Assembly: GCA_017462545.1 (NCBI GenBank)
Contig: JAFTQX010000019.1
Span: 1 to 58,498 of the forward strand
Length of the DNA stretch: 58,498 nucleotides
Direction: 5' to 3'
From: Clostridia bacterium
GTDB lineage: Bacteria; Bacillota; Clostridia; Oscillospirales; CAG-272
In this document: positions 21,082 to 25,122 of the stretch, one piece after another
How positions within the stretch are numbered: position 1 is the first letter of the stretch
How the letters are laid out: every line of letters starts with the position of its first letter
Notes under the pieces: generated by a model
Told to the model about the DNA's origin: nothing
The model's input: the letters and a program-made list of their open reading frames with translations, nothing else
The model's database searches: none
Made by a program: the position numbers and the translations under genes

Positions 21082-21860
21082 TTATGCCTACTGTCAACCG
21101 TGAAAATCTGCACAAAGAGCATCGCAAACGCGTCAAAGAGCGTTTTTTGCGCAGCGGATTAGAGGATTTTGCCCCGCATGAGCTGCTGGAGATGCTGCTC
21201 TTCTACGCCATCCCACAAAAGGATACCAACGAGCTCGGTCATCGACTGATCGAACGTTTTGGCTCGCTCTCGCGCGTTTTTCACGCGTCCTATGAGGAGC
21301 TTTGCGAGGTAGAGGGCATTGGCGATCACGCCGCCACGCTCCTGCGCCTTTGGTTGCCGGCTGCCGCCTACATCCTGACAGACAATCTAAACGAGAGCAA
21401 GCAACGCTTTAACACGGTGGACAAGGTTGGTATGTATTTTATCAATCGCTACATCGGCGCCAAAAACGAGACCGTATATCTGATGCTGCTGGACAACCGT
21501 TTTTCCATGCTCGATTGTATACGGGTGCATGAGGGCTCTGTCAATTCGGTCAGCATTACCGCGCGCCGCCTGCTGGAGCTTGCGCTGCGCAGCAATGCCG
21601 CGATGGCTGTTTTGGCACATAACCACCCCATCGGTATTGCTGTCCCCTCCTCAGAGGATGTTGGCACCACGATGGCCCTGCGCGACTCCTTTGAGGCGAT
21701 CGGCATTCCCTTGCTGGAGCACATTCTGGTGGCCGGTGGAGAATATACGCCTATTTTACTGCGCAGCGAGCGGCAGCTTGCCGAAAGCAAAAGAGGTACA
21801 TCCTTTTACGCAAACTATACATTTCCAAACGAAGAGCGATTACAAAAGGAGCAATCATGA
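21078..21860 (+). CDS. radC: RadC family JAB-domain protein
   Basis: HELLEMLLFYAIP, HhH motif VEGIG, AHNHPIG..PSSED. Confidence 0.9.
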   Translation: MIMPTVNRENLHKEHRKRVKERFLRSGLEDFAPHELLEMLLFYAIPQKDTNELGHRLIERFGSLSRVFHASYEELCEVEGIGDHAATLLRLWLPAAAYILTDNLNESKQRFNTVDKVGMYFINRYIGAKNETVYLMLLDNRFSMLDCIRVHEGSVNSVSITARRLLELALRSNAAMAVLAHNHPIGIAVPSSEDVGTTMALRDSFEAIGIPLLEHILVAGGEYTPILLRSERQLAESKRGTSFYANYTFPNEERLQKEQS

Positions 21861-22588
21861 TCGTATCACATTATCACAGCGCACAGCGCGGCCTTACCCG
21901 CTCGCTGCGCATTGCCATTGTGGCAGATCTGCATAACGAGGCTGACGAGGCGCTTTATCAAAAGCTGCGTGAGGTGGCACCGGAATTTGTGGTGGTGCCG
22001 GGTGATTTTCTCAACGATGCCGAGCACAAGGACGGCGGCCTTGCCTTTTTGCGTGCCTGCGCCGCGCTCTACCCCACCTATTGCTCGATTGGCAATCATG
22101 AGCGAAAGGCGGCCTTGCCCGATCTTGCCGCTTCGGTCAGTGAAACGGGAGCCGAGCTGCTGGACAACCGCGCCATTTTCCGCCATGGCATGTGGATTGG
22201 CGGACTTTCCTCCGGCTGGGGAGAGGGAGAGCGGCAATCGCACCTTGCCAAGACCCCACCGCCCGACGTGGACTTTATTGACGATTTTGCCTCTCGCGAG
22301 GGGTGCCGTCTGCTGCTTTGCCACCACCCCGAGTATTATGAGCCGTATCTTTACGAAAAGAACATCCCCCTGATCATCTCCGGCCATGCCCACGGTGGCC
22401 AGTGGCATTTATTCGGCCACGGGATCTACGCCCCCGGTCAAGGCCTTTTCCCGCACTACACCTCCGGCTTTTATGATGGCCGCCTGCTGGTCAGCCGCGG
22501 GCTTTGCAAAACGCGCCCCTGGATCCCGCGCATCCATAACCCGCGCGAGCTGACGATTCTTGACCTGTGGCCGCAGCCGACGCGCTGA
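21857..22588 (+). CDS. Calcineurin-like metallophosphoesterase (YkuE-like)
   Basis: ADLH, PGD, GNHE, HHP, SGHAHGGQ and SRG motifs. Confidence 0.9.
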   Translation: MIVSHYHSAQRGLTRSLRIAIVADLHNEADEALYQKLREVAPEFVVVPGDFLNDAEHKDGGLAFLRACAALYPTYCSIGNHERKAALPDLAASVSETGAELLDNRAIFRHGMWIGGLSSGWGEGERQSHLAKTPPPDVDFIDDFASREGCRLLLCHHPEYYEPYLYEKNIPLIISGHAHGGQWHLFGHGIYAPGQGLFPHYTSGFYDGRLLVSRGLCKTRPWIPRIHNPRELTILDLWPQPTR

Positions 22589-22610
22589 TCTTCCCCTCCG
22601 CAACGTAATA

Positions 22611-22645
22611 GAAAAACAGCCCTGCCGAAGCAGGGCTGTTCTTTT
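22611..22645. terminator. Bidirectional intrinsic terminator
   Basis: AACAGCCCTGC-CGAA-GCAGGGCTGTT with T-rich tails on both strands. Confidence 0.85.
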
Positions 22646-22838
22646 AGAAAGGAGTCCTCTATGAAACGGGTCGCGCACAAGTCGCGGATGCGCGCCCGTA
22701 CTTTACCATTCCATGAGTACCGCAACATGGGCAGTCATGTAGCCATTATTGGGTATAAAACGGGTGGGATGGATACGCATATCTTTTTTCCTACCTTTCG
22801 TGATGGTTACATGCGCCGTAGCGCCTATGTCAGGTTGC

Positions 22839-23348
22839 CATTGGACCATACCTCAATTTCTGTGAAATAGGCTCTGCCGTTTTTATACATTCGGTGGCAG
22901 ACACCGTTTACTGTAAAAGCGGGTGCACAGGATCTTCTTGATCAAAACCTTCTTTCTATCTTCATCCATCAAAGCGGGTGACGTTCGGGGGACATCTCCC
23001 CTCGGGTTAGGTTTTTGCGAAAGGGATTCCTGTTTATAAAACGTAGAAAGGAGACGGAATCTATCTTCTCGACGTAAGTCTTCTTTGCCCGTTCCTACGC
23101 CTGTACGCTGACGTGGCCGGGGAGCTCTTTCAAAATAAAGGATCAACACGTATCCACTTCTTGTACATGGGTCTATACCTCCCTTTAATGCTTCGTGAGG
23201 TAGGCTTACGTGTACATGGGACCGCTCCTCCTTTTTTATTCAGAAACATACCTTGGGTAAATGCTTAACGGCGCATTGGACCGTACCTCCTGGATGATTT
23301 CGGGTGGCGTTCAATAGACTCTTCGTTGTGCATTGGACCGCACCTCCT
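22839..23348 (-). repeat. Five 18-nt SD-AUG cassettes, consensus (A/G)GGAGG(T/A)RYRG(T/A)CC(A/C)ATG
   Basis: Copies at 23331-23348, 23274-23291, 23215-23232, 23166-23183 and 22839-22856 (last copy has TTGAGG at the SD). Confidence 0.85.
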
Positions 23349-23677
23349 GTTTATTTTGCCGGGATATGCCATGTGTGCGATCACCGCCGGTGATCTTTTT
23401 CTCTCTTCTTCTTCTCTTCTAACCTTCGGCACGCTCCTCGCGTGCGGTTGCACACATCGCTATATAAAAAGCGCCCAAGCCGGAAAACCTTCGTTTTGCG
23501 GTTTGTGCGCCAATTATCTTGTTCTGGTTCGGGCATTTGGGGGATCGATCTTATTTGCCCGTTTGGTGGCACATCAAAAACCGCGCATGAGCATCGCTCG
23601 TCAGAATTTTAGTCATTACGCGCATTTTTGCCACCCCTTTCGGTTTGAATTTGGCTATTTTGCCTCTTTTCACTTAC

Positions 23678-23706
23678 AGTATAGCAGAGGCTTTTCGATT
23701 TGTCAA
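23678..23706 (-). promoter_or_regulatory. Strong sigma-A promoter with AT-rich UP element
   Basis: TTGACA-17 bp-TATACT, extended -10 TG, A/T tracts at 23711-23739. Confidence 0.8.
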
Positions 23707-23750
23707 CCCCTTTTTTAAAATTTTTTCAAAAAATTTTTTGAGGGGGCACA

Positions 23751-24728
23751 TCACTTGCCGAGTGCCTCCAGCAGCGTAGGCATGATGGTTGCCAATACAT
23801 CCTCCGGGCAGCCGTTCAGGGTGCAGCCCGCGGCGCGGACATGGCCGCCGCCACCAAAGGCCTGCGCCACCGCGCTCACATTCGCCTCTACCGAGCGAAG
23901 GGAGACCTTGCTCACCCCCCCCGGCAGCTCACGCACGACCAGGGCGATCTCCACCCCCGCCATCGAGCGAGGGATGTCCACCGCTGTCTCAAAATCATCA
24001 TCCGAAAGGCCTGCGCGGTCGGCAAGCGTTAAGCATACCGCCCCAATGCGCCCGCCTGCGTGTACCGAAAGGCGAGACATGGCGATTTTTTCAGCCGCCA
24101 GCTGCTCGGGCGTGCGACTATCATACAGCAAATGGTTGATCTTATCCGCCTGGATACCCGAGGCGTGCAGCGCGGCCGCAATGCGGTGCGTTTCTGCTGT
24201 GACGTTGGAATACTTAAAGCAGCCGGTATCCGACGAGATGGCGGCATAGATCGCGCCGGCCACGGATACATCGATCTTTGTCAGCGCGCCGCGCGCGCAA
24301 AGCCGCTCGGCCAGGTGATAGATCACCTCGCCCGCCGCTGCGGCATGTGGGCAGATCAGCGAGGGGGCAAAGGCACAGCCCACCTCATGATGGTCAAGCA
24401 TCAGATGAACGCCGCCCGGCAGATATTCCTCGGCAAGAGAGCCAAGCTGCATGGGGGATGCCACATCTACCGCGATCACGGTGCCGCCCTTGTTCTCCTC
24501 TGCCGTGGCCATATCCAGCCCGTCAAACAGGAAGGCAAGGCGGCGGGGCAGCGGATCGGCACAGCGCCAAGCGGCCTTTTTATGTAGCCGCGCCAGAATA
24601 TGACAGAGCGCGGCGGCAGAGCCGACCGTATCCCCATCCGGGTGGGCATGGGAGAGGACGATGGGACGCTCGGCTGCAAGCAGCGTGTCACAAACCTCGT
24701 CCGGCGTCAGGCAAGGAAAATCACTCAT
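23751..24728 (-). CDS. nrnA: DHH/DHHA1 phosphoesterase (nanoRNase/pAp phosphatase)
   Basis: HAHPDGD, LDHH, SDTGCF, SLRS and GGGGHVRAAG motifs; start at MSDF overlapping the rbfA stop. Confidence 0.9.
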   Translation of the reverse strand: MSDFPCLTPDEVCDTLLAAERPIVLSHAHPDGDTVGSAAALCHILARLHKKAAWRCADPLPRRLAFLFDGLDMATAEENKGGTVIAVDVASPMQLGSLAEEYLPGGVHLMLDHHEVGCAFAPSLICPHAAAAGEVIYHLAERLCARGALTKIDVSVAGAIYAAISSDTGCFKYSNVTAETHRIAAALHASGIQADKINHLLYDSRTPEQLAAEKIAMSRLSVHAGGRIGAVCLTLADRAGLSDDDFETAVDIPRSMAGVEIALVVRELPGGVSKVSLRSVEANVSAVAQAFGGGGHVRAAGCTLNGCPEDVLATIMPTLLEALGK

Positions 24729-25122
24729 GCTCTGCCTCCTCGGCGGCAGCGGCCGCCTCGGCCTGCTCACGCGCAAGTCGCGCATCTGCCTCATGAATAT
24801 CCGAAAGGAGGCGGGCAATATGCGCACCATGCTCGATCGAGCCATCAGCCGTAAAGAGCAGATCGGGCGTCAGGCGCAAATTCAGCGTGACGGCCAAATG
24901 GTGGCGCAGCTTTCCCTTGGCAGCCTCCAGCGCGGCCTTGGCCTCCTTTTGGTTGCCAAGCGCAGAAAAATACACACGCGCCACCTTCAAATCGGCGGCG
25001 ACCTCTGCCCGCGTGATGCTGACAAAATGATCGATCAAGCGCGGATCACGCAGCTCCCGCAGGCAAACCGCCAGCTCCTGCGCCACCGCATCGTTGATTC
25101 TTCCTCTTCTGTATTTCGCCAT
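24721..25122 (-). CDS. rbfA: Ribosome-binding factor A
   Basis: LRDPRL, SITRAEVAADLKVARVY and LRLTPDLLF..DGSIEHG motifs. Confidence 0.95.
   Translation of the reverse strand: MAKYRRGRINDAVAQELAVCLRELRDPRLIDHFVSITRAEVAADLKVARVYFSALGNQKEAKAALEAAKGKLRHHLAVTLNLRLTPDLLFTADGSIEHGAHIARLLSDIHEADARLAREQAEAAAAAEEAEHE

Follow-up and report, generated by a model that had tools for sequence, protein, structure and literature searches.

Tandem Shine-Dalgarno-AUG modules in a Clostridia bacterium and an apparently undescribed module family of gut Clostridia

A contig of a Clostridia bacterium (GenBank assembly GCA_017462545.1, contig JAFTQX010000019.1, positions 1 to 58,498; the whole stretch is referred to here as the window) has an array of five 18-nt cassettes, from 23348 to 22839 on the minus strand of a gene-poor gap of 1.15 kb, each comprised of a Shine-Dalgarno (SD) sequence, a spacer and an ATG that opens a short open reading frame (ORF). 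The array is real and local and is not the ribosome binding site of a regulon. It is one member of a widespread and apparently undescribed family of modules in gut Clostridia, whose members have a conserved motif, a start-and-stop grammar, complementarity to the 3' tail of 16S ribosomal RNA (rRNA) and the layout of a stand-alone gene. From these features we infer that the modules bind ribosomes, are translated, are transcribed in the direction of the cassettes and have a physiological role; the reading that we tentatively prefer, at somewhat less than even confidence, is that they are ribosome-capturing mini-genes carried on an abundant small RNA.

Cassettes of the window

An earlier note on this DNA had described five SD-AUG cassettes on the minus strand, and all five are found where it had placed them. 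The SD-to-AUG spacing of 9 nt holds in every copy, the start-to-start spacings of copies 1 to 4 are 57, 59 and 49 nt and the ORFs opened are those which it had listed; the distance from the fourth to the fifth cassette is 327 nt (376 minus 49). Cassette 1 (23265..23348, SD to ATG at 23348-23331, AGGAGGTGCGGTCCAATG) opens a 22-codon ORF, MHNEESIERHPKSSRRYGPMRR followed by a stop, that runs in frame into cassette 2, and its duplex with the 16S tail is predicted at -19.0 kcal/mol. Cassette 2 (23265..23291, SD to ATG at 23291-23274) encodes MRR and a stop, with a predicted duplex of -18.4 kcal/mol, and cassette 3 (23206..23232, SD to ATG at 23232-23215) encodes MYT and a stop, with -18.2 kcal/mol. 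The most degenerate copy is cassette 4 (23130..23183, SD to ATG at 23183-23166), which has a 12-codon ORF, MYKKWIRVDPLF followed by a stop, and a predicted duplex of -14.2 kcal/mol. Cassette 5 (22830..22856, SD to ATG at 22856-22839) encodes MAT and a stop, with -16.0 kcal/mol.

Loci of two sister species, L071 and L141, have orthologous copies of cassette 1, of cassette 2 (MHK-stop and MYR-stop respectively) and of cassette 5 (MAR-stop and MAT-stop). Cassette 3 has an orthologue in L071 (MCT-stop) and is absent from L141, and cassette 4 is found in the window only. The orthologously placed cassettes 1, 2 and 5 are kept while the intervening sequence has diverged or been deleted, so that the absence of the motif from orthologous loci, which the earlier note had named as grounds for refutation, is not what is observed.

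The pattern GAGGNNNNGNYCMATG (GAGG-N4-GNYC-M-ATG) has five matches in the window, all in this stretch, against a mean expectation of 0.27 in 100 dinucleotide-preserving shuffles, none of which (0/100) reaches five. The repeats are 75-95% alike over 20 nt. The sequence between the copies is mostly unrelated, as had been noted: the core of the alignment is about 22-30 nt, the flanking similarity is weak and Tandem Repeats Finder calls no array. Past the MYT stop, CTACCTC can form 6 pairs with GAGGTA in the following SD, again as noted earlier.

A family of modules in Clostridia

With up to two mismatches, the cassette 18-mer has matches in 36 of 151 genomes of the genus, against 10 hits of the reversed 18-mer used as the control, and the recurring form is mostly GGAAGGTACGGTCCAATG. 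A sequence-only model of 41 nt, built from 139/140 sampled copies and used at a threshold of E<=0.01, detects the module in genomes of the genus, and the multiple hits of a genome mostly cluster at one locus. The own genome of the window (2.0 Mb, 81% complete) has five further matches to a loose cassette pattern, none of them with a similar spacer, and four hits of the 41-nt model, all within the cassette region. A regulon of genes that share the cassettes' ribosome binding site, for which the earlier note had suggested a genome-wide scan, is therefore not seen, as no real gene of the own genome carries it by the pattern or by the model.

The core followed by two codons and TAA, GGTACGGTCCAATG-N6-TAA, has been identified in at least 120 loci, against a chance estimate of about 70, in a search set in which every bacterial and archaeal species has a single genome. 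The family counts that follow are drawn from 80 of these loci, which by their record titles belong almost all to Clostridia: Lachnospiraceae, Oscillospiraceae, Ruminococcus, Blautia, Agathobacter, Eubacterium and Clostridia metagenome-assembled genomes. A cultured strain of Blautia wexlerae carries the module (L140), and one or two of the 80 loci resemble chance hits (L162, perhaps L145). Two to ten copies are present in 48 of the 80, and 113 of 167 spacings are 50-59 nt. A loose class-wide pattern proved too noisy, since it matched 60 of 401 genomes with many control hits; about 22 of the strings look true by eye.

The genus-type loci have a common order, namely a consensus extended -10 promoter, one to four cassettes within about 25 nt, a hairpin with a GGCG loop, about 250 variable nt and a 9-codon ORF. 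These units are 400-580 nt long and are without a long ORF, their neighbours differ, and their cassettes encode, for example, MAK, MKK, MAS, MAN and MA, each followed by a stop. The last 60 nt before the terminator in L060-L089 have a conserved SD and a 9-codon ORF (MLDTKSEQK and variants) whose stop codon falls within the terminator stem, in its 5' arm. In the Blautia type, the arrays have a UUG-started ORF of 5-6 codons (MDNEHL, MDTES) just before the terminator. In both types of locus the terminal short ORF and the terminator may together act as a translation-sensitive terminator. Conserved inverted repeats resembling TTGTAAA / TTTACAA and a ACAATTTCT motif, located 40-110 nt upstream of the -10 box in L060-L088, may be the operator sites of some regulator. 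Among Blautia-type loci (L140, L134, L115, L153 and L119) the first one to three units are of a subtype, GGTACAGACCACC..., that is without a start codon, and the later units have ATG. A subfamily (L106, L109, L142, L158) has a 7-bp hairpin (GTGTTAT...ATAACAC) before each cassette, ending at the SD.

Most of the family loci are free-standing units with a promoter and terminator of their own: consensus promoters are found a few tens of nt upstream of the modules, and a terminator usually follows 60-120 nt past the last copy of an array. Of the downstream neighbours 32 are co-directional and 20 convergent, and 28 loci have none; the corresponding numbers upstream are 34, 32 and 14. The proteins encoded downstream differ among the 36 loci read, and include deacetylase-like, QueA-like, transporter and sigma-factor proteins, named from sequence by eye with no family scan. 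The strong promoters, the many arrays with little in them beyond modules and a terminator and the inconsistent neighbours suggest that the modules themselves are the functional part, acting in trans or on their own RNA and not on a gene downstream.

Searches against Rfam 15 gave no match in the window at the gathering threshold and nothing relevant in the region at E<=10; ten array loci gave weak sub-threshold hits (E<=1), none above the gathering score of the family concerned. A likeness of the cassette to the start of rpmH was suggested by the genus hits L074 and L087, which precede rnpA, and was rejected: the rpmH look-alikes share only AGGAGGTGC, and the rpmH start regions, located in 13 of 29 loci, consist of AAGGAGGTGC and 5-8 nt without GGTCCAATG.

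Grammar of the module

The reading frame was analysed in 161 copies that lie near a seed and outside the search pattern, referred to here as unforced copies, for which the finding rule fixes GGT, R, N4 and CC. An ATG is present in 91 of them and a GTG or TTG in 8, and the remaining 62 are without a start codon. The unforced ATG copies stop after three codons in 75 of 91 cases and after two in 14, so that 89 of the 91 are of three codons or less. The stop is shifted by one base in 5 of the 91 ATG copies, whereas among the 62 that lack a start codon 17 have this shift and 38 keep the stop triplet in the same place; copies of one array are non-independent, and the frame counts are given with no P value. 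The frame is thus guarded together with the start codon and relaxed without it, which is what translation would impose.

Codons 2 and 3 of the mini-ORFs are purine-rich and variable, and hence no peptide is conserved. The earlier proposal that the conserved entity is the SD-spacer-AUG module rather than a peptide is borne out, as the module is kept in L071 and L141 and across several families of Clostridia. These comparisons support selection on the module, at the level of RNA or of translation. In 244 distinct units aligned without gaps there is no covariation (the highest mutual information is 0.18 bit), and with no internal helix the module resembles a single-stranded recognition site.

Complementarity to the 16S tail

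The 16S tail, GGAUCACCUCCUUUCU, and the 16S end, ...GGTGCGGCTGGATCACCTCCTTTCT, were read from a complete genome of the same order. The GGAGGU of the module pairs with ACCUCC; the next two bases (AC) bulge out, and pairing of GGUC(CA) with GAUC (and UG) can follow. For the genus consensus, AAGAAAGGAAGGTACGGTCCA, pairing with the whole 16-nt tail is predicted, with two bulges and -20.6 kcal/mol. The mean predicted duplex of 210 distinct cassettes is -15.4 kcal/mol, compared with -8.0 for 1067 long ORFs of the own genome, taken over the 23 nt that precede each. The GGAU part of the tail adds -4.7 kcal/mol to it, as against -1.7 when the letters of the spacer are shuffled and -1.2 for genes. The copies of the window are predicted at -14 to -19 kcal/mol, compared with a gene-start median of -8.4; duplexes equal to those of cassettes 1-3 are predicted for just 0.1-0.2% of gene starts. 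Copies without ATG retain the complementarity, with -16.2 kcal/mol (n=55) as against -13.3 for unforced ATG copies (n=89).

Several RNA-level roles had been offered in the earlier note. The ribosome or 30S decoy remains the best candidate among them, because SD and spacer complement the whole 16S tail, in copies without AUG as well; a CsrA-like sponge, discussed below, is not sustained.

The transcription unit of the window

An rRNA/tRNA-type promoter is located at 23678..23742 on the minus strand. It has an A/T-rich UP-like tract, a -35 box TTGACA (23706-23701), a 17-nt spacer with TG and a -10 box TATACT (23683-23678), and scores 11 of 12 matches with an extended -10. It is conserved in L071 and L141, and an A/T-rich tract, -35 and extended -10 also precede two 16S genes (C42, C66) and a transfer RNA (tRNA; C60) in the own genome. 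Short matches to this promoter are found in 22 of 40 related genomes searched, often at contig ends. From it the modules of the window would be transcribed on one RNA of about 1 kb together with three small protein ORFs, one of them likely and two of them candidates.

About 200 nt into the unit is a terminator-like element, T1 (23466..23511, minus strand), a predicted hairpin followed by UUUUU, whose stem is kept in three species and which would possibly be leaky. The GGCG-loop hairpin (23379..23395, minus strand, GATCACCGGCGGTGATC) is conserved and is found in genus-type loci as well, with compensatory changes in its stem (CAC/GTG, GAC/GTC, CGC/GCG, and GATC/GATC to GGCC/GGCC). As compared in L063, L075, L080, L082, L071 and L141, this hairpin is downstream of the first cassette or cassettes in most relatives, and it is upstream of the array in the window. 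The unit ends with an intrinsic terminator, T2 (22611..22639, minus strand), with a G+C-rich stem of 10 bp, a TTCG loop and a U-run; T2 is conserved in L071 and is usable too by the convergent gene on the plus strand.

A likely small protein gene of 28 codons (22883..22969, minus strand, MDEDRKKVLIKKILCTRFYSKRCLPPNV) has an in-frame start in the window, L071 and L141. Its differences by codon position are 4/8/20 in the three species, with 16 synonymous against 9 non-synonymous codon changes, and this ORF is probably an unannotated small protein. The product would be very basic, with two Cys. A candidate gene of 25 codons (22703..22780, minus strand, MRIHPTRFIPNNGYMTAHVAVLMEW) keeps NGYMT....LMEW and the stop position in the three species, with an in-frame deletion of 6 nt in L141; its codon-position counts, 12/6/13, are ambiguous and do not tell the strand. 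A candidate ORF of 24 codons (23551..23625, minus strand, MRVMTKILTSDAHARFLMCHQTGK) is of the same length and has the same stop position in the three species. It lies within a conserved long hairpin, and its coding is uncertain, with differences of 15/23/23 by codon position and 8 synonymous and 27 non-synonymous changes; an RNA-level cause, the overlapping hairpin, is the alternative to coding as an explanation of its conservation. None of the three ORFs has a match in Pfam or NCBIfam. The earlier note had missed at least one likely small protein gene in the locus and the membership of the module in a large family. A plus-strand ORF of 69 residues (22661-22870) with a good SD, antisense to cassette 5 and to the 25-codon ORF, was rejected as probably spurious: it has no family match, and its frame is interrupted in L071 and L141 by 2- and 3-nt indels.

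Contigs of a gut RNA library align to 22928-23303 (376 nt, 3 differences) and to 22660-22957 (about 90% alike), and their loose ends match the L071 and L141 loci. These contigs, which do not give strand or level, are a weak hint of transcription of the region; those of RNA-library run X4 leave 22300-22641, most of 23326-23667 and 23782-24000 uncovered, gaps which prove nothing. Near-identical pieces in the DNA runs X3, X5 and X6 have zero differences within the cassettes and are uninformative on constraint.

The gap is flanked upstream by a DHH/DHHA1 (NrnA-like) gene (23751-24845, minus strand) and, beyond T2, by a convergent gene of the Metallophos family encoding a metallophosphoesterase (21857-22588, plus strand). 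No tRNA was found in the gap. Orthologues of the NrnA-like gene are encoded in 41 of 61 genus genomes and are merely 29-51% identical. A second NrnA-like DHH/DHHA1 gene is present in the own genome at C14:1608-2567 and is 41% identical to the copy in the window, which is without the gene order found downstream of the orthologues in relatives. Among 27 relatives with at least 600 nt of DNA downstream of the NrnA-like orthologue none (0/27) has a cassette there, an ordinary ORF being found instead, and the cassette locus is therefore non-syntenic. A BLAST search of the whole gap against 40 relatives gave a sole match, to the promoter part (A/T-rich tract and -35).

Ribosome capture and the alternatives

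The module is made up of a purine-rich SD, the spacer GGUAC(G/A)G(U/A)CCA, AUG, one or two further codons and UAA. It occurs singly or in tandem, with up to 10 copies to an array, and the transcripts of gut and rumen Clostridia that would carry it are short and strongly promoted and are bounded by terminators. Each module would be a 30S landing site of very high affinity, in which SD and spacer pair with nearly the whole of the single-stranded 16S 3' tail. On a module with AUG the ribosome would initiate, form at most two peptide bonds and terminate almost at once. The duplex between SD and tail need not melt over so short a path, and the ribosome may be held or recycled in place. The RNA would in this manner capture and cycle ribosomes instead of encoding a product, as a ribosome-loading or ribosome-trapping RNA.

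A precedent is available in Bacillus subtilis, where ribosomes initiating at the strong SD of the hbs messenger RNA (mRNA) block RNase J1 (PMC5737220). A more specific form of the ribosome-capture reading can be put forward, which we consider unlikely when taken as a whole. It holds that a dedicated class of abundant small RNAs in gut and rumen Clostridia consists of tandem three-codon mini-genes whose extended SD would clamp the entire 16S 3' tail, so that ribosomes would initiate, terminate and re-initiate without leaving; such RNAs, a ribosome sponge or trap made from rRNA-type promoters, may tune the number of free ribosomes or test new ones. We know of no trans-acting ribosome-titrating RNA of such kind in bacteria.

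A number of observations weigh against ribosome capture. ATG is absent from 70 of the 161 unforced copies (35 have AAG, 14 CCA, and others occur), and translation is therefore not required of every copy. The module is detected in only about one third of the genus genomes searched (27/80), which suggests that it is dispensable or fast-diverging. The middle of the spacer varies (G in 50% and A in 45% at position 5; T in 60% and A in 32% at position 7), which weakens the pairing with GAUC, and a G.U wobble is conserved at position 6 although A-U would pair equally. The last two of the proposed pairs (CA with UG) would compete with the end of helix 45 and could form only if it opened. The complementarity to 16S was spotted after the fact, and GGT and CC are fixed by the rule used to find copies and hence are not independently measured. 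By predicted local folding the cassettes of the window are less open than average (unpaired probability 0.29-0.41 as against 0.47). Strong expression of minigenes is also costly in Escherichia coli, through sequestration of tRNA (PMC2490762).

Two other functional explanations have been considered, neither of which we regard as likely. The modules may be helpers in cis, which load ribosomes and so protect the transcript from 5'-to-3' decay, or feed downstream small ORFs by termination-reinitiation; the real products would then, with the same low probability, be small proteins, namely the 28-, 25- and perhaps 24-codon ORFs in the window and the 5-9-codon terminal ORF elsewhere. This explanation draws on the position of the first module of genus-type loci, which starts about 25 nt or less from the -10 box, on the clear coding signature of the 28-codon ORF shared by the window, L071 and L141, on the terminal ORFs of genus-type and Blautia-type loci and on the stabilisation of Bacillus mRNAs by ribosomes bound at a strong SD (PMC5737220, PMC3997798). 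It does not account for the many Lachnospiraceae arrays that have little beyond 5-10 modules and a terminator, where a single 5' module should suffice for protection; the module is conserved across the family and the small ORFs are not, and the first good module of the window is about 320 nt from the predicted start. It is about equally doubtful that the arrays are sponges for an RNA-binding protein or a C-rich small RNA (sRNA) which recognises GGUAC(G/A)G(U/A)CCAAUG, their likeness to start sites arising because that factor acts at start sites. Such a role would suit a core that is conserved across families beyond the needs of an SD, is kept in copies without AUG, has no internal helix and is repeated up to 10 times per RNA. 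A target regulon is however not visible, as no gene start of the own genome has a similar site, and the three-codon frame kept with AUG is needless for a mere binding site; there is no conserved neighbour gene to suggest a partner, and the obvious candidate, CsrA, was not found.

That candidate defines a narrower version, a CsrB-like sponge for CsrA, to which we attach next to no probability. Repeated SD-like purine motifs, many with GGA, are what it would have in its favour, but GGA is not invariant, many copies having GGC, GAG or CGA in its place, and the motifs are not in hairpin loops, as no covariation or helix is present. The check for csrA proposed in the earlier note was negative: PF02599 is found in neither the own genome (0/1, 81% complete) nor any of 61 genus genomes (0/61), which include several module carriers and of which 56 have a completeness of 90% or more and a contamination of 5% or less, and it was detected in the positive controls E. 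coli, B. subtilis and T. maritima. A functionless origin, in which the 5' end of a gene was duplicated locally in tandem and has decayed, is very improbable, if slightly less so. The tandem copies have similar periods, there is weak extra similarity a few bases beyond the ATG, and arrays of other species have the whole-unit similarity typical of duplication. No gene of the own genome has such a start region, however, and the likeness to rpmH extends to AGGAGGTGC only. The core is identical between families whose flanks differ, orthologous copies are kept in L071 and L141 where the sequence between them has diverged or been lost, and the ORF is of three codons or less in 89 of 91 copies. The core conservation across families and the kept three-codon frame thus contradict the decayed duplication that the earlier note had set as a refuting condition. 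Hardly more credible than the CsrA sponge is a repeat array of an RNA-guided or RNA-antitoxin system, either of the CRISPR (clustered regularly interspaced short palindromic repeats) kind or a type III antitoxin resembling ToxI. In the 36 loci read, with no scan made against toxin families, a conserved gene for an effector or a toxin is not seen downstream, and the next gene in the window is the convergent metallophosphoesterase. A CRISPR array would have near-identical repeats and unique spacers, but the repeats of the window are only 75-95% alike and the inter-repeat segments are often alike in other arrays, no search having been aimed at cas genes. The repeats have an SD-AUG-stop grammar, and a collection of viral contigs, searched for a link to phages, gave just 4 hits, estimated at about the chance level.

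Relation to known systems

Minigenes of the phage lambda bar type are a known case of very short translated units. Toxic minigenes of 3-8 codons (PMC2490762) and a regulatory minigene in the axe-txe operon (PMC8708949) have been described. Like the modules they have an SD and a start codon that is followed, after one or a few sense codons, by a stop; they act through engagement of ribosome and tRNA, as the modules would, and not through the peptide. Each cassette of the window has its start codon at a working distance from the SD, and the in-frame stop comes after 3 codons in cassettes 2, 3 and 5, after 22 in cassette 1 and after 12 in cassette 4. Known minigenes are single and lie inside a phage or operon transcript, whereas the Clostridia module has a conserved 14-nt spacer, occurs in several families and in arrays of up to 10, and makes up most of a stand-alone RNA gene.

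The sponge RNAs of the CsrB/RsmZ type present GGA in hairpin loops and bind CsrA. An abundant small RNA with many SD-like repeats which titrates a factor active at start sites would be common to both; the Clostridia module differs in its lack of hairpins, in the GGA that is not invariant, in the CsrA that was not found and in the start codon and stop within the repeat.

Stabilisers of the SD type at the 5' end of Firmicutes mRNAs, STAB-SD (PMC3997798) and hbs (PMC5737220), have a strong SD that binds 30S with or without translation and shields the RNA from RNase J1, and module copies without AUG keep the 16S complementarity. The known stabilisers are single and precede a normal gene, whereas the modules are tandem and often have no gene behind them. 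As for the position near the 5' end, genus-type loci have their first copy close to the -10 box, and that of the window is about 320 nt from the predicted start.

The upstream ORF (uORF) of lmo0919 is only three codons long. Ribosome-dependent attenuators have short uORFs, as in rli53 before lmo0919 (PMC11550727) and rli80 before hflXr (PMC6310831). A very short ORF with a strong SD before a terminator is the shared feature, and the terminal ORF of genus-type loci ends inside the terminator stem. These attenuators precede one regulated gene and their uORFs are not arrayed; the gene past the terminator of the window is convergent, as are 20 of the 52 downstream neighbours in the family.

Repeats of type III antitoxins differ from system to system. 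With the ToxI-like antitoxin RNA arrays (PMC3401426, in which the text mentions Lachnospiraceae) the modules share a promoter, tandem direct repeats and a terminator, but no toxin gene is seen after them in the loci read, and they have start-site grammar within the repeats and one core across families.

On these comparisons the module would work most like a minigene, a sponge RNA and an SD-type stabiliser combined, and it is a member of none of the families tested. The motif letters were not found in the full-text literature, where matches to 10-mers were unrelated primers, and no description of tandem SD-AUG arrays was found by key words; both searches covered the literature apart from subscription journals and supplements. 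In the passages found of a 2026 preprint on periodic noncoding arrays, Clostridia and the motif are unmentioned.

Significance

Should the ribosome binding suggested by their sequence be real, the modules would represent a conserved and apparently unreported form of ribosome handling in major gut Firmicutes, the whole body of an RNA being a series of start sites that leave hardly anything to translate. The buffering of the pool of free ribosomes, the natural role of minigenes and the extent of pairing with the 16S tail are the questions touched by it, and the cultured Blautia wexlerae carrier (L140) makes the idea directly testable. Even if the modules act in cis, the 14-nt core would be a start-site element that is compact, portable and very strong, and it comes from organisms whose stock of expression parts is small.

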